Shown piece after piece: positions 3,529 through 28,465 of a DNA stretch of 29,596 nt. The notes under the pieces were generated by a model, which saw nothing but the letters and a program-made list of their open reading frames with translations, searched no databases and was not told where the DNA came from. Source of the DNA: a virus; the UHGV virus genome UHGV-0100673; one strand, given 5' to 3'. The stretch's first letter is position 1, and each line of letters starts with the position of its first letter. Made by a program: the position numbers and the translations under genes.

Positions 3529-5418
3529 TTAGTTAGTTGAAGAGTGGCCGCATAGTTTGGCATTTAGTCCGACATTACATTCGGACAAAGCCACGCCGCT
3601 GATGTTGATGATTCGAACGTACGCCTGCGTTTTCGCGCTGTTGATATAAACCTGAACAGCCACAACAGGCATTGACCCTGCGTATCCTACTGGCGTCACG
3701 TCCAGTGTGTAGTTCGTCCAGTCAGCAATAGAAATGCCAAACAGTGTCGTCACATCTTTTTCAGAATACCCGCCGGCACTTATTGGCCCCCACGCGACAG
3801 CTGAGGATGTGGTATGGAATTTCACACCACCGTCGAGGTTTACCCTGTTTTTTGCTTTTCCGTTGCCCGTACCCAAATACAGCCGCCTGGAATATGTGTC
3901 ACCAAAGTCATCAACACCCCACGGCGTTACAGATGCTGAAACCTGATGAATATATGTCCAGCTACCGTTCTGCGTAGTTTTTCTGCGTACTATAGGGGCA
4001 TTCCCTGAAGCAAAAATAGAATAGGTTGTAGCATCTGTAATGCTAAGCCCCGTTACTGAATCAAAAATTCTGACACCACAATTCCACTTATCGACTCCGT
4101 TACGTAGACGCTGAACGCGAATGCCATCAGCCCCAGATGATGTGGATAGATCTCCAACCCCAGCGATGTAACAGCCAACATAAGTACCGTTACCCACGAT
4201 GCCATCAATATTACAATCAATCTCAACCCCGTAAACCTCGTCTCCGGGTTGCAGATTATGGGCGTTAGTTAACAGGTTCATTGCCCACAATTTCTGCCGT
4301 TCACAGTTAAACGATTCTATCGCAGCCATCAGAGCGACGAACGGCTCATAATTCGGCCCGCTGGACAGCGTGTCATGGACAGCCATTTCAACAGCCATAG
4401 TCTGGTGCTTTACCGACGTTCCATCGATATTCACAGCGCTATATTGTTTTGTTCTGAACGTAGTGCCTGATATTTTGTGGTTCGGGTGCGTTGTTAGTCT
4501 CGGCAGAAAATTGGTATTCGTGACTGTAATTCCCGGGGAAAAAATAACAGTACACGGCTCCGAACGATCAAATTCTATCGCACTGGTTAGAGTGACATTG
4601 GTATCAAAAGTGATGTTACTGGACTCATCAAAAGCAGCCTGCACAGCATCCTGATCGGACAGCCCCTGATTTTTGTAATAACTGATCGCAACAAGAGGTT
4701 TATTACCCAACTTTGCGACCAGGGAAGTCCCTTCTTCTGATGCCAACTCAATCATCACATCAGCCGCAGAACCTGACTCAGGCAATACCGCTATCGGATT
4801 ACCGGTATCGTTGAATGCCAGTATTTTTTTCCTGCGACCTGAGATGCCAGGAAGCATTCCTACTTCTGACTCAGGAACCCTCAGCGTCCGCTTAAAGTTA
4901 TTGTCTGAATGAGAAATGGCGCCATGATAGAGATTGTCAGCATACCCCTTCGTGGCCGCATCCTGCGCCTGTGACGGGTCACGCAAGTTACGAATGCGGT
5001 TGTTGAGTGCGTCGTAATAGTTAGCGATGAACGACGGCTTGCGCAGCGCCAGGCGGAGAAAGCTGAAACACTGCTGGATAAGCATGGTCAACTTGTCGAA
5101 CGCATCCTCATGCACCTCTGCGAAAAATTTACCCTGGTTACGGAGGTCAGTATCCTGGGTAACTGGCAGGTCACGCGAGATAGAGATTTGCCATCCGTTG
5201 GCCAGCGGTGACATCAGCACTACATTCCCACCAGAATAAGTACCAGCCCCAGTAACTGAGTAATCGGTATCCAGAGTCAGCACCGTAATATTTTCGTTAA
5301 GGTCAGCGACCTGGACGGTGAGATCTGACTTCTTGAAGATGCGGAATGTATACGGAAATGATGTCGTAACGCCGTTACCTGTGTATTCGTTGTGGTCAAC
5401 TTCGGTTGAGACCGTCAT
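3529..5418 (-). CDS. Tailspike / tail fibre protein
   Basis: 629 aa; N-terminal pattern EYTGNGVTTSFPYTF...VLTLDTDY resembles the conserved particle-binding domain of T7 gp17-type fibres and podovirus tailspikes; remainder is Gly/Thr/Asn/Ser-rich, consistent with a beta-helix receptor-binding body. Confidence 0.75.
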   Translation of the reverse strand: MTVSTEVDHNEYTGNGVTTSFPYTFRIFKKSDLTVQVADLNENITVLTLDTDYSVTGAGTYSGGNVVLMSPLANGWQISISRDLPVTQDTDLRNQGKFFAEVHEDAFDKLTMLIQQCFSFLRLALRKPSFIANYYDALNNRIRNLRDPSQAQDAATKGYADNLYHGAISHSDNNFKRTLRVPESEVGMLPGISGRRKKILAFNDTGNPIAVLPESGSAADVMIELASEEGTSLVAKLGNKPLVAISYYKNQGLSDQDAVQAAFDESSNITFDTNVTLTSAIEFDRSEPCTVIFSPGITVTNTNFLPRLTTHPNHKISGTTFRTKQYSAVNIDGTSVKHQTMAVEMAVHDTLSSGPNYEPFVALMAAIESFNCERQKLWAMNLLTNAHNLQPGDEVYGVEIDCNIDGIVGNGTYVGCYIAGVGDLSTSSGADGIRVQRLRNGVDKWNCGVRIFDSVTGLSITDATTYSIFASGNAPIVRRKTTQNGSWTYIHQVSASVTPWGVDDFGDTYSRRLYLGTGNGKAKNRVNLDGGVKFHTTSSAVAWGPISAGGYSEKDVTTLFGISIADWTNYTLDVTPVGYAGSMPVVAVQVYINSAKTQAYVRIINISGVALSECNVGLNAKLCGHSSTN

Positions 5419-5521
5419 GTTAAATCTCCAGATAGTCGCAGCACCCGTTGCGCCGCATATCCGGTTATTTTATTACCTGAAAAACCACATATGGATAGAT
5501 AGACTGTGAATACGAACAGAT

Positions 5522-5538
5522 ATTACCTTTCAGGTAAT
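5522..5538. promoter_or_regulatory. Palindromic operator-like site ATTACC-TTTCA-GGTAAT
   Basis: Perfect 6-bp inverted arms with 5-bp spacer, read directly; same core as four other sites in the window. Confidence 0.5.
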
Positions 5539-5574
5539 TTGCAAAACGTGCTGGATAGCAAACAAATTATTTGA

Positions 5575-5594
5575 TACTGTATAAATATACAGTT
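5575..5594. promoter_or_regulatory. LexA (SOS) box
   Basis: TACTGTATAAATATACAGTT contains CTGT-N8-ACAG with an AT-rich spacer, a very close match to the LexA consensus, about 20 nt upstream of the ATG at 5614. Confidence 0.75.
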
Positions 5595-5613
5595 ATTGCA
5601 TGGAGAAGATAAG

Positions 5614-5902: not shown

Positions 5903-5919
5903 TTACCTTTGCGGTAAAT
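5903..5919. promoter_or_regulatory. Palindromic operator-like site variant TTTACC-TTTGC-GGTAAA
   Basis: Same TTACC-N5-GGTAA core as the other four sites. Confidence 0.4.
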
Positions 5920-6186: not shown

Positions 6187-6882
6187 ATGACAGCTACAAA
6201 AAGCACGTCCATTTTTTCTTTCGAATCCCAAGCCGATATACGAGTAATCGTCATTAATGGTGAGCCATGGTTTATCGCTTCAGATGTTTGTCGGGCTATA
6301 GGCATAGCAAACCATCGAGATGCTGTTCGAAAACTTGATGATGATGAGAAGGGCGTCGCTTCAACCGACACCCCTGGCGGTGAGCAAGAATCGATCATCA
6401 TCTCCGAGTCAGGCCTCTACACACTGATCCTCCGCTGCCGCGACGCAGTGACACCAGGCACTATCCCCTACCGCTTTCGTAAATGGGTTACAGGTGAGGT
6501 TCTTCCTCAGATCCGCTGCACCGGAAGTTACATTAAAAACTCGCTCCCGCAGGAAGAACGCATAAAGATGGTTGCCGACCAGGTAGCCAACGCCACAGCA
6601 TCAGCAGTGATGCAGGCGATGAAGATAGAGAACAAAACCTACAGTGCCCCACTGAAGCCCGGCTACCGCAGCCTGATTCATTCGCCGTCTGGTGTTCTCG
6701 GCCTGACGGAGAACTCACTGCTGATGAATCTGCTGAACCAGTTACAGGAAGACGGGCACGACGTATCGGGCGCGGCGGCGGAGCTGACCACCATGTTCTG
6801 CTACATCGTCGGTGTGAGCAAATGCCTGCGTGATATCCAGACGCACGCGGAGTACATCAACGACAAAGCAGGGTTCTTCTGA
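6187..6882 (+). CDS. BRO-N domain phage antirepressor
   Basis: N-terminal region ...IRVIVINGEPWFIASDVCRAIGI...ESGLYTLILRC...FRKWVTGEVLPQIR matches the BRO-N domain pattern; C-terminal about 60 aa homologous to the small upstream protein. Confidence 0.75.
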   Translation: MTATKSTSIFSFESQADIRVIVINGEPWFIASDVCRAIGIANHRDAVRKLDDDEKGVASTDTPGGEQESIIISESGLYTLILRCRDAVTPGTIPYRFRKWVTGEVLPQIRCTGSYIKNSLPQEERIKMVADQVANATASAVMQAMKIENKTYSAPLKPGYRSLIHSPSGVLGLTENSLLMNLLNQLQEDGHDVSGAAAELTTMFCYIVGVSKCLRDIQTHAEYINDKAGFF

Positions 6883-6953
6883 CGGGCGGCGGCACAGGGA
6901 TGTGCCTTTAAATAATTCTGTACAGATTGCAGACTGGGGGTGAATAGCGTACT

Positions 6954-6970
6954 ATTACCTTAAAGGTAAA
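6954..6970. promoter_or_regulatory. Palindromic operator-like site ATTACC-TTAAA-GGTAAA
   Basis: TTACC-N5-GGTAA core about 45 nt upstream of the ATG at 7012. Confidence 0.45.
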
Positions 6971-7011
6971 CCTGTTTTTATTTTATACCTGTAACTTACC
7001 GGAGATTAAAG

Positions 7012-7338
7012 ATGACAAAACTTGGATTCGTGATGAGAGGTCCGGTAAGAAGCGGAACTCATGCAAAGCGTAGCAAGAGTCGTATTTTTACTGGTAAGGT
7101 TGTAGCACGTAAATCAGCTATTGGCTCGTTCCATAGTGAAAATGCGGCATTGCGCCATATTTTTATCAGCACAAAGCCAAGAGCATCCGCTGATGTGCAT
7201 ACAATGACTATTCCTATCACAAAGAATATAAAGCGGATAAAAAAGCTCTCATCTGCAGAATCAAAAGAGATATCTTTCCGCCAGCTTAACTCATTAGAAA
7301 CGCATATGAAGGAAGAGGAATTCGATGTTTTTGAGTGA
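7012..7338 (+). CDS. Hypothetical basic protein, first gene of a two-gene overlapping module (candidate antitoxin/partner)
   Basis: SD GGAG 7 nt upstream of ATG; 108 aa, Lys/Arg-rich with acidic C-terminal tail EEEFDVFE; 3' end overlaps the next gene by 14 nt. Confidence 0.5.
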   Translation: MTKLGFVMRGPVRSGTHAKRSKSRIFTGKVVARKSAIGSFHSENAALRHIFISTKPRASADVHTMTIPITKNIKRIKKLSSAESKEISFRQLNSLETHMKEEEFDVFE

Positions 7339-7837
7339 GTATAGCGGGAAGGTTATACCTACTGGTGAGTTTAAAACTGATGACTTTCTGATTTCGCTAA
7401 AAGATGCTTTTAAACAACACTGGCGTCATGGTCATCATCCTGATCTGGGAAAAGATACTCTTTTTGAAAGACCAGACGAAGTATTAGGTTTCCATCTCAG
7501 AAAGGTTCATGTCAATATTGGTGAATATGCATCATATTCATACTCATGTACTGAACAGTGTTGGGATGAGTGGTCATATGGATTGATTGATGAACAAGGA
7601 AATTACAGGCCAAAACCAACCAGTAACGCATATCTCATATATGCAGTCAATGAAATAAGAGATGCAGCCTTACTAGCTTATTGGGACCCGCCCGCACACA
7701 CCAAAGCTAACGCAAAAGTTTGGATGGATTCCGTATTGAATTTCACAAAATTATTTCATGAACGAACGAATACAGCTCCACTTAGTAGAAATGTTTATCC
7801 GTGGGATTATTCGTACAAATCCAAAAAGCCTGCATAG
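7325..7837 (+). CDS. Candidate YafO-family toxin-like protein (tentative)
   Basis: Start ATG 7325 lies inside the upstream gene with SD AGGAAGAGGA ahead of it. Blocks LGKDTLFE...HLRKVHV and AYLIYAVNEIRDAALLAYWDPPAH resemble, from memory, the conserved FGRDALYD...VAHIHL and HLVYCQG...AWLLIAILKPEPH blocks of E. coli YafO. No search was run. Confidence 0.45.
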   Translation: MFLSEYSGKVIPTGEFKTDDFLISLKDAFKQHWRHGHHPDLGKDTLFERPDEVLGFHLRKVHVNIGEYASYSYSCTEQCWDEWSYGLIDEQGNYRPKPTSNAYLIYAVNEIRDAALLAYWDPPAHTKANAKVWMDSVLNFTKLFHERTNTAPLSRNVYPWDYSYKSKKPA

Positions 7838-7918
7838 TAGTTTTTTATGGACGAAACAAAAGTCAGTGCTACACTCATTGACGCCACATTGAAGTGGCTT
7901 ATAGATGGAAATTTCACA

Positions 7919-8080
7919 ATGAAAAAAGCATTTGCTGCACTGTTCGTTTTGTTGTCTCTGGTAGCTTCAACTCAGGCCTTTGCCGGTCGTTGTCAGCACG
8001 ACAGCGATACTGCCGCTGACGGCTCCCGCTGCGGTGGGCGTTCTGCGGATTCCCGCCCGGGTGGCGGTGGCATTCGTTAA
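7919..8080 (+). CDS. Small secreted Cys-containing peptide
   Basis: Internal start MKKAFAALFVLLSLVASTQAFA is a canonical signal peptide; mature part about 31 aa, Gly/Ser/Asp/Arg-rich with two Cys. The longer ORF from 7847 adds 24 non-signal residues. Confidence 0.45.
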   Translation: MKKAFAALFVLLSLVASTQAFAGRCQHDSDTAADGSRCGGRSADSRPGGGGIR

Positions 8081-8086
8081 AAACAA

Positions 8087-8102
8087 GGCCGCGAAAGCGG
8101 CC
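8087..8102. terminator. GC hairpin, likely intrinsic terminator for the minus-strand operon
   Basis: GGCCGC-GAAA-GCGGCC perfect stem; on the minus strand it is followed by TTGTTTTT, immediately after the stop of the 8112..8408 gene. Confidence 0.6.
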
Positions 8103-8111
8103 TGTGACATG

Positions 8112-8408
8112 TCACGTTCCTTTTCTGAATGATAGCCGTTCGAAAAATGATGACATTCCACCGCAGACAATAGCAAAGATGATCCCACCAAAGAAGAGAA
8201 GGCCAGCCTGCCACCACTCCCACCGCCATACATCCACAGCGCCAATCATACCAACAATCGCTCCAACAAACGGAATATAACTCACGACAAAAGCAACGGG
8301 AGCTGCAATTACCCAGTGCACCCCCCACCATGATTCAAGCCCAGCCATAATTGCTGCCAACTGAAAAAGACCAACGACGATATAAACAATGAATCCTATA
8401 GCTTGCAT
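8112..8408 (-). CDS. Small multi-pass inner-membrane protein
   Basis: 98 aa, almost entirely hydrophobic helices with Trp-rich loops; SD AGGTGA upstream; last gene of the minus-strand structural operon. Confidence 0.55.
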   Translation of the reverse strand: MQAIGFIVYIVVGLFQLAAIMAGLESWWGVHWVIAAPVAFVVSYIPFVGAIVGMIGAVDVWRWEWWQAGLLFFGGIIFAIVCGGMSSFFERLSFRKGT

Positions 8409-8603
8409 GTAGTCACCTATTTACCCATTAAAAATCAGAGGCCTCCCCTCAATAAGGCTTGCAACAAGAACTACTCCCTGCACAACAAAGATGAACCAGC
8501 AAATAGCTTGAGTCTGAGGGTTAAGAAAATATTTGTAGCGGTCAATAAATAACAATCCACCAGAAATTATCACACTCAAAATAATTAAAAACACAACACT
8601 TCC

Positions 8604-11078
8604 TTATTGCGGAGTGACATCCTGAGGTCGCCACCAGTATGTCTGGTTAAACTCTTTCTTCGAACGTTGCTCCATTTTACGCAAATAGCCTGGTGAAAAA
8701 TACTCCTGCATCTGGTTAAAGATCATGTGATCGAGAGCCGCCTTCAAGTACCAGAGATTCGCACCAGGCATCAAACCTTTCCCCAGCTTCACCAGATCAC
8801 CACCAGTCTGCTCACTCTTCCCTTCCACAGCATTTAACGGTATGCCCTGAGCAATCTTCACTACGTCATCAACCAGACCAGCTACCGGGCCAAGCATCGA
8901 CGCCAGCGCGCCGCTTCCGTACCTAGTGTGATCTGACAATAAAAAGTCACCATAAAGGCCAAGACCACCACCTTTCAGTAGAGCACCAAGCCAGAATTTT
9001 GCGGCATCTTCTCCTGTCATCTCTCGAGGATTACGACCAGACGCAAGGTCGTTAAGTTGTTGCGACAAAGCGCCAAGAATGGTCGTACTGGCAATAAACG
9101 TCGCAATATATGCCGCACGCCCACCAGCAGACGGCATACCCATAGCGCGTGACCAGTGACGCATAACAACCGAGATAGGGAACGATTTAAACAGGAAAAC
9201 ACTTCTCGTTAATTCACCTTTCCATGTTCCACGCTGAATACCAGAACCGGTTATCAGTTGCTCACGTGCTCCCGGTGTAATAACAGCCATATCAACTTCT
9301 TCAGTTACGGCACCGAGCAGTTTACGCATTGCCTCAAATTTCACGCGTTCAGGCTCACCAAGATGTTTAACTGCTGAATCAGGGATACGCATAATGCTTT
9401 CCGGTGTCAGCATCGTATTATTACCGTTACCCCAGTCCTCCTGTTGCGCCAGCTTCCATACGCTCCAGTCTGTGTCAGTAATCCCTTTGCTTTTCAGGAT
9501 ACGAAAATCAGAGTCATCGAGGCTACGAAGGTCTGGTGTTCGTGACACTACTTCTCCCAGGCTTCCCATCATGGTTACGCCATAGGCGCGCTTGTGCGCA
9601 TCTGACCATGCTGTAAGCCCACTGGCACGCATTACCGCCGTTGCCGCCCAACGAGACACTGACGGCCCCATATTATCCATCGCCCAGCGGTTAACGCTGC
9701 CAAGTAGAGATTCCATCGCCAGACCAGCGCGGCGCGCCCGCGCAAGTTCTGTACGGTTCGTTGGGTCCATAGCTTCAAGCTGGTTGCGGAATAACTGGTT
9801 CATTGGAAGGTTGGTAACCTTCGCAGACAGATACATGGTTCCAAGATCAGAGAACGATGACAGCAACGCGGATCCGAGTCTGCTGGCAACCAGCCAGTTG
9901 CGGATATTGTCAGACCATCGCGCGATGTGCGGATTCGCTACAGGCTGTGTCTTTCCGGAAATAAAGTTGTACAGATTCTCTGTGTTGTTCGCCAGCCGCT
10001 CGACTTTACCGGTTTTACTCGGGTTAGCGGTTGCCGTTTCTGCCTTCACCTGATCAAGAAGAGAGCGGAAAACATGATCGGGGTTTGGGCCATATGTTTC
10101 CACCAGTGCAATATCTTTACTGATACCTTCCAGGTGACCGACCATGATTTCCCATAGAGAGCGATCGCCATAAAGTTGCTGATATTGCAGATAGGAATCT
10201 GCATCTTTGAAATGTATCTGTCGTGATGCATTACCACGGTTAGCACGTGCGCCGGAAATTCGCATTCCGGTATCAGTAAGCTTATTCAGCCCACCAGTAG
10301 CGATCGTGTTATAAGCCTCTCCAAGAAATGCAGACAACTCGGCATCGTTCATCAGTTGTCCATCGGCTCGGATATAATATTTGCGATCCAGCTTACCTAT
10401 AACATCGCTAACCCACTTATCCTTTGATACCGCCCCAACCTTTTCCATAGAATGATGTTGAGGGATCCCCCAGTTTTCGAGATAGCCAATGTCCCCACCA
10501 GCATCATTAAACCGGCGGCGCAGCAGCTCTGTAACTTCTCTCCACGCCTTAGCACCTTTTCTTGCTTTAGCATTGCCAGTATTTTGCCCCCGCATTTCAT
10601 ATACCAGGTCACGTACGCCCGCTTCATCTTCAAACAGACCAAAAAAGCGAGGATCAACTGCTTCGAATGCCTCCTGCAATTGACTCAATGCATAATCACG
10701 GGTGGCTTTTGTTCTGGATTCAACAGAGAGGAAATTAGATTTACCGTCTGCATTAAAAGCTATAGTACGGTTAAGAGCGCCAAGTTTCCCATCAGCCCCT
10801 TGATAGCTATTGATAAATTTATCCAATCTCTGACGCGCGGCTATAGTGAGAGCCACACGACGTTTCTTTAATGCCGCTTCTCGCTGTAATTCTTCAGATG
10901 CCAATTGTGCTGCTCGATATAGCCGCTCTGATTCGGAAAGTTGTCGCCACGACATCGGGTCATCACGAGCAATGGAGCGCATATTTCGATAAATGCGGTC
11001 TTCAATGTTCTGTATTTCTCGCGCCGTTAACGTGCGCTGCGCCGCCTGCTGGACCGCTTGTATACATTCCTGTCTCAT
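8604..11078 (-). CDS. Internal virion / ejection protein (gp16-like position)
   Basis: 824-aa ORF in the run of large proteins between the tail tube genes and the end of the structural operon; call is positional. Confidence 0.55.
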   Translation of the reverse strand: MRQECIQAVQQAAQRTLTAREIQNIEDRIYRNMRSIARDDPMSWRQLSESERLYRAAQLASEELQREAALKKRRVALTIAARQRLDKFINSYQGADGKLGALNRTIAFNADGKSNFLSVESRTKATRDYALSQLQEAFEAVDPRFFGLFEDEAGVRDLVYEMRGQNTGNAKARKGAKAWREVTELLRRRFNDAGGDIGYLENWGIPQHHSMEKVGAVSKDKWVSDVIGKLDRKYYIRADGQLMNDAELSAFLGEAYNTIATGGLNKLTDTGMRISGARANRGNASRQIHFKDADSYLQYQQLYGDRSLWEIMVGHLEGISKDIALVETYGPNPDHVFRSLLDQVKAETATANPSKTGKVERLANNTENLYNFISGKTQPVANPHIARWSDNIRNWLVASRLGSALLSSFSDLGTMYLSAKVTNLPMNQLFRNQLEAMDPTNRTELARARRAGLAMESLLGSVNRWAMDNMGPSVSRWAATAVMRASGLTAWSDAHKRAYGVTMMGSLGEVVSRTPDLRSLDDSDFRILKSKGITDTDWSVWKLAQQEDWGNGNNTMLTPESIMRIPDSAVKHLGEPERVKFEAMRKLLGAVTEEVDMAVITPGAREQLITGSGIQRGTWKGELTRSVFLFKSFPISVVMRHWSRAMGMPSAGGRAAYIATFIASTTILGALSQQLNDLASGRNPREMTGEDAAKFWLGALLKGGGLGLYGDFLLSDHTRYGSGALASMLGPVAGLVDDVVKIAQGIPLNAVEGKSEQTGGDLVKLGKGLMPGANLWYLKAALDHMIFNQMQEYFSPGYLRKMEQRSKKEFNQTYWWRPQDVTPQ

Positions 11079-25334: not shown

Positions 25335-26225
25335 ATGCTTGACTTCATCCGTGACATTTACTCCTCTTTCCGCCAAGCATCTCTTGAGCGGGTGAAAAGC
25401 CCGTTCCTTGGGGCATTTGTTTTTTCCTGGCTTTGCTTTAATTGGCAGATGTTAGCAATTCTATTTTTTAGTTCTAAGGATATTGAAAAGCGCCTTGCTA
25501 TTATTAATGGCTCTTTCGGCATCGTCAGCTTTTTAATTGCGCCAATATGCACTACAGCATTGATAGTTATCCTTTTACCGCAAATTAATAAATTGATTAC
25601 AATAATACAAGATAAACCTAACTCAGACACAATTGAAATGAGCCTTGCATCTAAAATAAAGATCGCCGAACTGCAGCAACTATTAGCAGAAAATGAAGCA
25701 AGAAAGAAACTTGCTGATAAAAAAGAAGAACGCTTCATTGAAGAGAATATTATTTCAATAAAAAAAGACCATGAAAAAGCAATAGATAACCTTAAAGACA
25801 AAGAAAGCAAAATCTCAAATCTCACGGACACAATAACTGAACTTCAGAGCAAACTGGTTAAAGCTGAGGCCACTCTCAAAGTTGAACAGGAGTCAAGATC
25901 CCAAGTGCAGAATGAATTGATTATTGAAAAAGAGAACAAGCGGAAATTAGAAGACAACATTCTGCACCTTAATTTAAGTTTAAAAAAAAACCAATCAGAA
26001 TTGGCCATTGCAAAAGAAGCCTATGATAATACCTTGATGGCTTATAATGAACTTAACACAACATTAAAAAAAGCAGAAAGCTCAATAATAAACTTCAATG
26101 CTAACTTTCCTTTTTTAACTGACATAAATAACAGCACCCCAAATACATACTTAAAAATAAATAAAAATGCATGGGATCATTTAGTTAGTTTAAATTTAAG
26201 TCTAAAGGAGAAAATACAAAAATAA
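25335..26225 (+). CDS. Membrane-anchored coiled-coil protein, AT-rich accessory (moron) gene of unknown function
   Basis: 296 aa; two N-terminal hydrophobic helices (FLGAFVFSWLCFNWQMLAILFF and IVSFLIAPICTTALIVILLP) then about 200 aa of Lys/Glu/Leu/Asn-rich heptad-like sequence; codons dominated by A/T with frequent ATA and some AGA; opposite strand to the flanking terminase and portal genes. Confidence 0.65.
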   Translation: MLDFIRDIYSSFRQASLERVKSPFLGAFVFSWLCFNWQMLAILFFSSKDIEKRLAIINGSFGIVSFLIAPICTTALIVILLPQINKLITIIQDKPNSDTIEMSLASKIKIAELQQLLAENEARKKLADKKEERFIEENIISIKKDHEKAIDNLKDKESKISNLTDTITELQSKLVKAEATLKVEQESRSQVQNELIIEKENKRKLEDNILHLNLSLKKNQSELAIAKEAYDNTLMAYNELNTTLKKAESSIINFNANFPFLTDINNSTPNTYLKINKNAWDHLVSLNLSLKEKIQK

Positions 26226-27718: not shown

Positions 27719-28347
27719 TGATTGCCATCCTGACGTTCTTTGAGTCGCTTCCTGGCTGCTGCTATGCGATCAGCAATTGTCACATTCACATTAACATCCA
27801 GACGTTCTTTGAACGCGTTAACGTCGACGTGCTTACCGATGAGCTCGAGGTTTTTCACCTTGTCGGGCCATTTCACCTTCTTCAGGATATGCTCGACATC
27901 CTCAACAGAGAGATCCGCCTCGCCATTCTCTTTTTGCAGGGAAGCCTGGGTTGTCTTGATGGTAGCGATATCCATAGCACTGAGAGAGGTACGCCAGACC
28001 TTCGGCCATTCAGCGATCGGCTTCATCCCGCCGTCATCGTTCAGTATATCCAGCACGTCCATCTGGTCGATCTCCACCAGGCGCATGAGAACGTAATCAG
28101 CACTGACGCGCATTCGTTTGTTGCGCTCCTCCATCAACTCGGCAATCCGTTTTTGAATGCGTTCATCGCGCATCATGACACTGGCTTTAACTGCCGCTGT
28201 ATTTGGGGAGAATCCTGCGTTAATCGCTGCCTGAGTCTGGTTTTCAGGCGTTTTGATGTATGACTGGCAATAAGCCTCCTGCATTGCTGTTAGTGGCTTA
28301 AATTGCGTTGATTTGCGTTTATAGGTTTTAGGTTCAGCAGGCATCAT
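27715..28347 (-). CDS. Terminase small subunit
   Basis: Helix-turn-helix-like N-terminal region (LTAMQEAYCQSYIKTPENQTQAAINAGFSPNTAAV) and position immediately upstream of terL. Start set at ATG 28347 (MMPAEPK); the ORF-track start at 28425 is TTG and adds a low-complexity Thr/Ile/Val leader. Confidence 0.7.
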   Translation of the reverse strand: MMPAEPKTYKRKSTQFKPLTAMQEAYCQSYIKTPENQTQAAINAGFSPNTAAVKASVMMRDERIQKRIAELMEERNKRMRVSADYVLMRLVEIDQMDVLDILNDDGGMKPIAEWPKVWRTSLSAMDIATIKTTQASLQKENGEADLSVEDVEHILKKVKWPDKVKNLELIGKHVDVNAFKERLDVNVNVTIADRIAAARKRLKERQDGNQ

Positions 28348-28465
28348 AACCACCGTGGTAATAGTTACCGTTGTGGTAATAGTACCATGCAAAATAAAGC
28401 CGCCATAGTTGGCGGCAGTATTCAAAACCCGTCAAATTCATCATGCATAATCTACTCGTGACATG

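Follow-up and report, generated by a model that had tools for sequence, protein, structure and literature searches.

The question raised by this locus is whether two small, overlapping genes carried on a prophage form a toxin-antitoxin pair and, if so, what decides when they are expressed. The window, by which we mean the whole stretch of 29,596 nucleotides (nt) that was analyzed (UHGV virus genome UHGV-0100673), is a phiV10/epsilon15-like (Uetakevirus) prophage of E. coli, and the genes in question, called gene 1 and gene 2 here, encode proteins of 108 and 170 amino acids (aa). We consider it probable, from the sequence comparisons that follow, that the two genes constitute a type II pair, in which a helix of the gene 1 product blocks a translation-linked mRNA endonuclease of the YafO type, and that this pair lies behind an operator found throughout the phage. 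Under this model free gene 2 toxin would cleave mRNA and translation would stop, the acidic C-terminal helix of gene 1 (residues 81-107) would bind and block the toxin, and the N-terminal 80 residues of gene 1, strongly basic, fast-evolving and largely disordered, would be the exchangeable part. The operon would be read from a promoter whose start lies under one copy of the operator, TTACC-N5-GGTAA.

The toxin is the better known half of the pair. An earlier note, made by inspection of the letters alone, had allowed for an undescribed system; the toxin at least is already annotated, since RefSeq/PGAP names the gene 2 protein (WP_000479990.1) 'type II toxin-antitoxin system YafO family toxin' and gives the identical YafO name to homologues with 66-82% identity in Enterobacter, Salmonella, Serratia and Raoultella. 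When 1.84 billion representatives were searched exhaustively with HMMER, only 54 relatives were returned. Pfam PF13957 (YafO_toxin) was matched by 26 of the 41 relatives that were aligned, the best with an E value of 6.8e-23, and the 41-sequence family profile, when compared with E. coli K-12 YafO by hhalign, gave a probability of 95.4% (E value 1.8e-8) over 108 columns. The G-K/R-D, R-x-x-H and A-H blocks of the family are collinear with those of YafO, and H62 and H125 of gene 2 align with histidines of the K-12 protein. Four residues are invariant in the family (F29, G42, H62 and H125), six are nearly so (G36, D44, P50, W80, S100 and Y106), and K43 and R59 are further conserved residues of the core; the two sequence blocks that had first suggested YafO proved to be this conserved core (G42-K43-D44, R59, H62, Y106, H125). 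Judged from these alignments, H62 and H125 would be the likely acid/base pair.

An AlphaFold2 model of gene 2, built from the family alignment, had a mean predicted local distance difference test score (pLDDT) of 95.7 and a predicted template modeling score of 0.90, and its fold is RelE/HigB-like, with the alpha/beta arrangement of RelE. Foldseek found nothing significant for the model in the PDB and no viral structural match in BFVD, and for this reason the predicted fold is regarded as moderate evidence. Relative to the 132-aa YafO, the gene 2 clade has an insertion at about residues 64-98, containing Trp and Cys with W80 and W83 conserved, and a C-terminal extension. The transitive hidden Markov model (HMM) evidence, the profile comparison with K-12 YafO and the predicted fold all place gene 2 in the YafO family as a long-form member, in agreement with the YafO likeness seen in the earlier note. 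YafO is an experimentally confirmed toxin that cuts translated mRNA (PMC2814082) and is counted among the BECR-fold RelE/ParE families (PMC11980606); our literature search found no experimental characterization of the gene 2 clade.

The arrangement of the two genes is that of a type II toxin-antitoxin system: they are small, adjacent, co-oriented and overlapping, and their co-occurrence is conserved. Both lie on the + strand, opposite the virion genes (- strand, 8604-11078 onward), and share 14 nt. Gene 1 is preceded by a Shine-Dalgarno sequence (GGAG, 7001-7004) located 7 nt 5' of its ATG, while that of gene 2 lies within gene 1, so that the translational coupling described from the first inspection is well founded in its particulars. 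Each of the 39 related loci that were inspected (31 viral contigs and 8 genome or metagenome contigs) has an upstream partner followed by a toxin; they cover epsilon15-like, P22-like (beside arc/ant and a tailspike gene) and integrase/AlpA contexts and several genera. The 14-nt overlap is kept in close and mid-distance relatives although partner identity drops to 16-50%; overlaps of 14, 4 or 26 nt occur, as is typical for coupled gene pairs, and the partner subfamilies follow the toxin subfamilies. Gene 2 is under strong purifying selection, with a proportion of nonsynonymous differences (pN) of 0.12-0.17 and of synonymous differences (pS) of 0.62-0.84, the latter at or near saturation. Purifying selection on gene 1 is weaker, with a ratio of nonsynonymous to synonymous rates (dN/dS) of 0.29-0.56, and this is consistent with a genuine, fast-evolving coding gene, as antitoxins typically are. 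Homologs of gene 1 have diverged less at synonymous sites (pS 0.46-0.65) than those of gene 2, despite the much faster evolution of the gene 1 protein; nucleotide-level constraint at both conserved ends (the translation start, and the overlap with the Shine-Dalgarno sequence and start of gene 2) or recombination may be the cause.

The gene 1 family comprises approximately 22 clusters, all of them enterobacterial and all labeled "hypothetical". The protein has an isoelectric point (pI) of 10.6, which divides into 12.0 for residues 1-79 and 4.5 for residues 80-108. Variation is concentrated in the middle of the protein; the N-terminus (MTKLGFVMRG...KRRK.R) hardly varies in the family, nor does the C-terminus (S..ES.ELSFRMLNSLEDRMKEEEFD.FE). 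AlphaFold2 was confident only for the acidic C-terminal helix (pLDDT 87-88, against 64 for the whole protein), which carries the motif IKKLS..ES.E[IL]S...FD.FE. Toxins at 43-49% identity were paired with partners that were only 16-20% identical, or that had wholly different N-termini (113-183 aa), and the C-terminal 35 or so residues keep the motif across these partners despite the N-terminal divergence. A 40-column HMM of the motif found partners with unrelated N-termini in locus L040 (70 bits), L043 (17 bits), L054 (8.5 bits) and phage TL-2011b (5.6 bits), and for each of the four no more than one of 500 shuffled sequences reached the score. The toxin partnered with the motif-bearing protein of L054 is itself PF13957-positive. 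On the strength of this pattern, gene 1 is probably the antitoxin of gene 2, and the conserved, portable C-terminal helix is likely the element that neutralizes the toxin, with the basic N-terminal regions being exchangeable.

What gene 1 does not resemble is YafN. The K-12 YafN protein matches PF02604 under the same scan that finds nothing in gene 1, and it scored -1.2 bits with the partner motif HMM, a value that 58% of shuffled sequences equaled or exceeded; a Pfam scan of 10 gene 1 relatives also gave no match. By these comparisons gene 1 is not YafN-like and falls outside the Phd/YefM type of antitoxin, as had been remarked at the outset from its basic composition. A tail shared with YafN (partner ...EEEFDVFE, YafN ...DDDFNDFKE) was considered and rejected, the Smith-Waterman alignment giving a z of 1.4 against shuffled sequences in addition to the negative motif score. 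A ribbon-helix-helix or AbrB-like DNA-binding domain was likewise rejected: profiles from Pfam, NCBIfam and the PDB gave it no support, and the confidence of the AlphaFold2 model is poor for all but the C-terminal helix.

We then turn to the control of the pair. The predicted start of transcription is overlapped by the TTACC-N5-GGTAA palindrome, whose first base is shared with the putative -10 hexamer TACTAT of a putative sigma-70 promoter (Table 1). A stricter consensus promoter scan did not call this promoter at 6927-6955; a TAnnAT-like hexamer lies directly 5' of the palindrome in all divergent loci. In every one of those loci the palindrome precedes the module, with its arms conserved and its 5-nt spacer varying. 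The operator noticed in the first inspection is therefore present at 6955-6969, but it does not belong specifically to the module. In the window there are seven copies against 0.47 expected, each 5' of a transcription unit, including a pair directly upstream of the likely terS start, and in phiV10 (L050), which lacks the module, there are 14 copies against 0.70 expected. Two of the phiV10 copies lie between a cI-like repressor gene and a divergent cro-like gene and two lie before the early-left operon, while others precede int, oac, BRO-N and further units. The prophage of E. coli PK6 (L051), whose module is identical to ours, has eight sites with the same pattern in the immunity region. Highly over-represented and placed before nearly every transcription unit of these phages, the palindrome looks like a single type of operator through which one regulator governs the entire genome with its accessory genes, and we infer from its position that this regulator would be the prophage cI-like repressor (WP_000836290.1) and/or the cro-like protein. 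Since the start site of the cassette is covered by a copy of this phage-wide operator, transcription of the cassette is probably set by the immunity repressor rather than only by the antitoxin, and the pair may then be expressed mainly on derepression; we hold this control with less confidence than the toxin-antitoxin pairing. The opposite geometry, with the palindrome as an activator site, was rejected because a promoter further downstream leaves no space for the Shine-Dalgarno sequence.

The borders of the cassette agree with this arrangement of operator and cargo. Over bases 6900-8450 the identity is 100% with E. coli PK6 and approximately 99% with about 40 further complete genomes, while phages phiv142-3, TL-2011b and HEMP4 match only the flanks of this region and not its middle. 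Homology of the window to phiv142-3 and TL-2011b continues through the palindrome, ends at 6970/6971 and restarts at 7841, and therefore a slot directly 3' of the operator carries differing cargo in each phage. In the comparison of window positions 6971-7840 with L002 (3073-3844), L003 (3072-3725) and L049, the slot holds the gene 1/gene 2 pair in the window, a YafO-like pair with a toxin of 32% identity and a 59-aa partner in TL-2011b, and two tiny open reading frames (ORFs) of 55 and 52 aa, without a Pfam match, in phiv142-3; in phiV10 it is empty. The two phiv142-3 ORFs could represent another small two-gene system. The GC content is 0.39 within the slot and 0.37-0.41 over 7000-8000, compared with 0.50 for the whole window and about 0.48-0.53 for the flanking genes, so that the lower GC content claimed for the module is confirmed. 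The break points and composition mark 6971-7840 as an exchangeable cargo cassette of a Uetakevirus-type E. coli prophage, and the earlier description of the pair as prophage cargo appears correct.

Several results weigh against a type II pair and must be set beside those above. Gene 2 by itself scored 19.7 bits (E value 9.5e-4) with PF13957, below the gathering cut-off of 25 bits, in an alignment that covers profile positions 7-100 of 101, and it matched no NCBIfam model. Gene 1 had no match in Pfam, NCBIfam, PADLOC or the PDB, either singly or as a profile, and has no recognizable DNA-binding fold, and a near-neutral toxin (pI 6.4) with a basic partner is the reverse of the usual charge pattern. 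Neither gene, nor the small signal-peptide protein that follows them, nor the TL-2011b pair matched PADLOC-DB v2 at E values up to 1. A repressor-occupied operator in lysogens may also leave the pair silent there, which fits poorly with classical addiction or constitutive defense. The profile search first proposed as a check thus reaches PF13957 and YafO through the family, while gene 1 is unmatched; the refuting outcome set beforehand, the lack of a significant match of gene 2 to a toxin family, is missed only by a small margin, because the direct Pfam score stays under the gathering cut-off. One could suppose on these grounds that gene 1 is an unrelated small basic nucleic-acid-binding protein or cofactor and gene 2 a non-toxic or degenerate YafO-like protein, the more so as the partner resembles no antitoxin family in sequence, the similarity of its C-terminus to that of YafN does not reach significance, and its model is of low confidence. 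We regard this as highly improbable in view of the strict co-occurrence of the genes with start/stop overlap in all loci examined, the strong purifying selection on a toxin that keeps its invariant histidines, and a C-terminal motif that is common to otherwise unrelated partners and has the look of a toxin-binding module.

A different set of alternatives accepts the pair and differs as to its control. The module might be a classical, self-contained and autoregulated type II system, with the basic N-terminus of gene 1 binding the palindrome as a private operator and repressing its own promoter, as YafN does at yafNO. In each divergent locus the palindrome does lie 3' of the predicted -10 and 5' of the gene 1 start, its arms being conserved and its spacer variable; the partner N-terminus (MTKLGF...KRRK) is invariant and very basic; the L034-L039 subfamily retains a similar N-terminal motif together with the same palindrome; and in L006, L034 and L035 the palindrome is the only copy within 5-8 kb. 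We nonetheless find a private operator very unlikely, given the many copies in the window and in phiV10, which has no gene 1, some of them 5' of the early-left operon or between the repressor and cro-like genes. Moreover, the palindrome occupies the same slot in phiv142-3 despite different cargo, the homology between phages with differing cargo includes the palindrome and breaks right after it, and the partners of TL-2011b and L040-L043 keep the palindrome even though their N-termini are different. The pair might instead be a tool of the phage after derepression, an RNase expressed on induction or infection, together with the antirepressor region, that remodels or shuts off translation of the host or of a competitor phage, with gene 1 serving as a buffer of timing or dosage. 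The repressing position of the operator at the transcription start, its sharing with lytic and early units (among them the early operons and the region immediately 5' of terS), and the adjoining BRO-N antirepressor-like gene that bears the same operator would all suit such a role. But near-consensus sites also precede phiV10 oac and int, which are needed in lysogens, so the site does not prove silencing, and a conserved two-gene layout with a labile-looking partner is the ordinary pattern of toxin-antitoxin systems; we judge this alternative unlikely. The boldest version of immunity control would have the cI-like repressor silence the pair in lysogens and let it fire only once repression is lost, be it by induction, by antirepressor attack or when a naive cell is infected. 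The pair would then be a dead-man switch or a modulator of translation in the lytic phase and not a constitutive module for addiction or defense, with gene 1 as a new antitoxin class and the slot as a general plug-in site. In this full form it seems to us rather doubtful, if somewhat less so than the preceding alternatives. For the type II pair behind a phage-wide operator, which we favor, the candidate roles would be exclusion or abortive infection, stabilization of the prophage, or a function after derepression or in the lytic phase.

On the + strand the genes run in the order BRO-N/antirepressor-like gene, gene 1, gene 2, the 53-aa signal-peptide protein and a GC-rich hairpin (Table 1). The stem-loop at the end of the BRO-N gene, an equivalent of which was found in related loci, would set the module apart as a separate transcription unit, and the GC-rich hairpin between the convergent units is probably a bidirectional terminator. 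The signal-peptide product consists of MKKAFAALFVLLSLVASTQAFA, a Sec-type signal-peptide-like N-terminus, followed by GRCQHDSDTAADGSRCGGRSADSRPGGGGIR, a mature part of 31 residues that is rich in Gly, Asp and Arg and has two Cys. The secreted Cys peptide of the earlier note is therefore recognizable, but its membership in the cassette is not upheld: the protein is retained in relatives whatever cargo fills the slot, and by this measure it is a phage backbone gene outside the cassette. It is probably the last gene on the transcript of the cassette. A longer, 77-aa reading from 7847 matches phrog_3117.

Table 1. Features of the gene 1/gene 2 locus and related elements. Positions are those of the window unless a locus is named.
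Feature	Position	Strand	Remarks
Palindrome copies in the window	5523-5537, 5903-5917, 6955-6969, 24674-24688, 25288-25302, 28347-28361, 28365-28379		TTACC-N5-GGTAA
BRO-N/antirepressor-like gene	6187-6882	+	
Stem-loop GGCACAGGGATGTGCC, then TTTAAATAAT	6891..6906	+	at end of BRO-N/antirepressor gene; read from sequence
Putative sigma-70 promoter	6927..6955	+	-35 TTGCAG 6927-6932, 17-nt spacer, -10 TACTAT 6950-6955; read from sequence
Palindrome TTACCTTAAAGGTAA	6955-6969	.	overlaps predicted transcription start; one copy of phage-wide operator
Variable cargo cassette	6971..7840	+	870 bp, GC 0.39; homology break points against phiv142-3 and TL-2011b
Gene 1, putative antitoxin	7012-7338	+	108 aa, ATG start; phrog_5933
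Gene 2 Shine-Dalgarno sequence GAGGA	7315-7319	+	within gene 1, 5 nt 5' of gene 2 ATG
Gene 2, predicted long-form YafO-family toxin	7325-7837	+	170 aa, ATG start; predicted RelE/ParE-superfamily fold
Signal-peptide protein	7919-8080	+	53 aa; phrog_14503, label 'membrane associated protein'
GC-rich hairpin AGGCCGCGAAAGCGGCCT	8086..8103	.	between convergent units; called on - strand; annotated terminator in phiV10
Rap1a-family gene (PF18602)	L006 4557-4940, L007 4557-4940, L011 4554-4943, L012 4554-4808	-	

Some further features of the window and its relatives deserve mention. Between the terminase and portal genes lie a tRNA-Arg(tct) gene (25011-25087, +) and a 296-aa ORF (25335-26225, +) that is hydrophobic in its N-terminal part, Lys/Glu-rich in the rest and unmatched in Pfam; a copy of the palindrome precedes each of them, which hints at another accessory unit with this type of control. 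A gene of the Rap1a family (Pfam description 'Rap1a immunity proteins') directly adjoins the toxin-antitoxin pair in several related loci. Rap1a proteins are immunity proteins of type VI secretion, and these neighbors suggest that the region gathers conflict-related cargo. In PK6 (L001/L048), where the module is 100% identical, ISKox3 and IS2 transposase genes lie between the lysis genes and an 86-aa gene, and over window positions 3529-5600 the window has a 629-aa tail-fiber ORF in their place; the window therefore stems either from another genome or from a form of the same prophage that lacks the interruption.

What is new here is modest, and consists of an antitoxin-like family without annotation, recognizable by its short C-terminal motif, and of a cassette apparently placed under an immunity operator. 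The exchange of antitoxins between toxin families and the carriage of toxin-antitoxin cargo by prophages are both well documented, and none of the consequences would overturn current understanding. If the proposal is correct, YafO toxins would gain a second, unannotated class of antitoxin, the missing partner would be the "hypothetical protein" encoded 5' of the toxins to which PGAP gives the YafO name, and the short conserved helix would be a simple handle for finding more pairs. Toxins with such a "hypothetical" neighbor occur in approximately 0.7% of complete E. coli genomes and also in prophages of Salmonella, Serratia, Klebsiella and Citrobacter. With toxin-antitoxin cargo placed directly behind the immunity operator of a prophage, the locus would also be a defined example that bears on when prophage-borne toxins are expressed.

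Among the closest known systems is YafN-YafO of E. coli K-12, which has a homologous toxin, as seen in the hhalign comparison, the collinear motifs and the aligned histidines, and the same order of an antitoxin-like gene 5' and a toxin gene 3' in one operon. The two differ in that the toxin here is longer (170 against 132 aa) by the insertion and extension described above, and in that the partner is basic, lacks a Phd/YefM domain and carries a C-terminal motif absent from YafN, which is acidic and matches PF02604. The module lies in a prophage cargo slot and not downstream of dinB, and its promoter appears to bear the phage immunity operator and not a YafN/LexA site. The ribosome-dependent mRNA endonucleases HigB2, HigB, RelE, YafQ and YoeB are more distant: gene 2 is only 6-17% identical to them over some 100 of 170 aligned residues, the Foldseek comparison is not significant, and their catalytic residues are not demonstrably equivalent to those of gene 2.

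Among phages, the pair gp45/gp44 of TL-2011b is a close counterpart that occupies the same slot after the same operator. Its toxin shares 32% identity with gene 2, and a small, basic protein with the C-terminal motif is encoded 5' of the toxin; this partner differs in having 59 aa and an N-terminus unrelated to that of gene 1, and the two TL-2011b genes overlap by 26 nt. Other 'long YafO' pairs occur in Uetakevirus-like and P22-like prophages, and in the Salmonella locus L008, which belongs to a P22-like prophage, the neighbors of the module are Arc/Ant genes and the gene for the tailspike. In its gene order the slot also recalls the moron or superinfection-exclusion slots of prophages, such as immI-sieA of P22, in which AT-rich accessory genes, flanked by the antirepressor region on one side and the virion genes on the other, vary from one otherwise collinear phage to the next. 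It departs from them in that the unit here is apparently under the immunity operator, and not under an independent, constitutive moron promoter.

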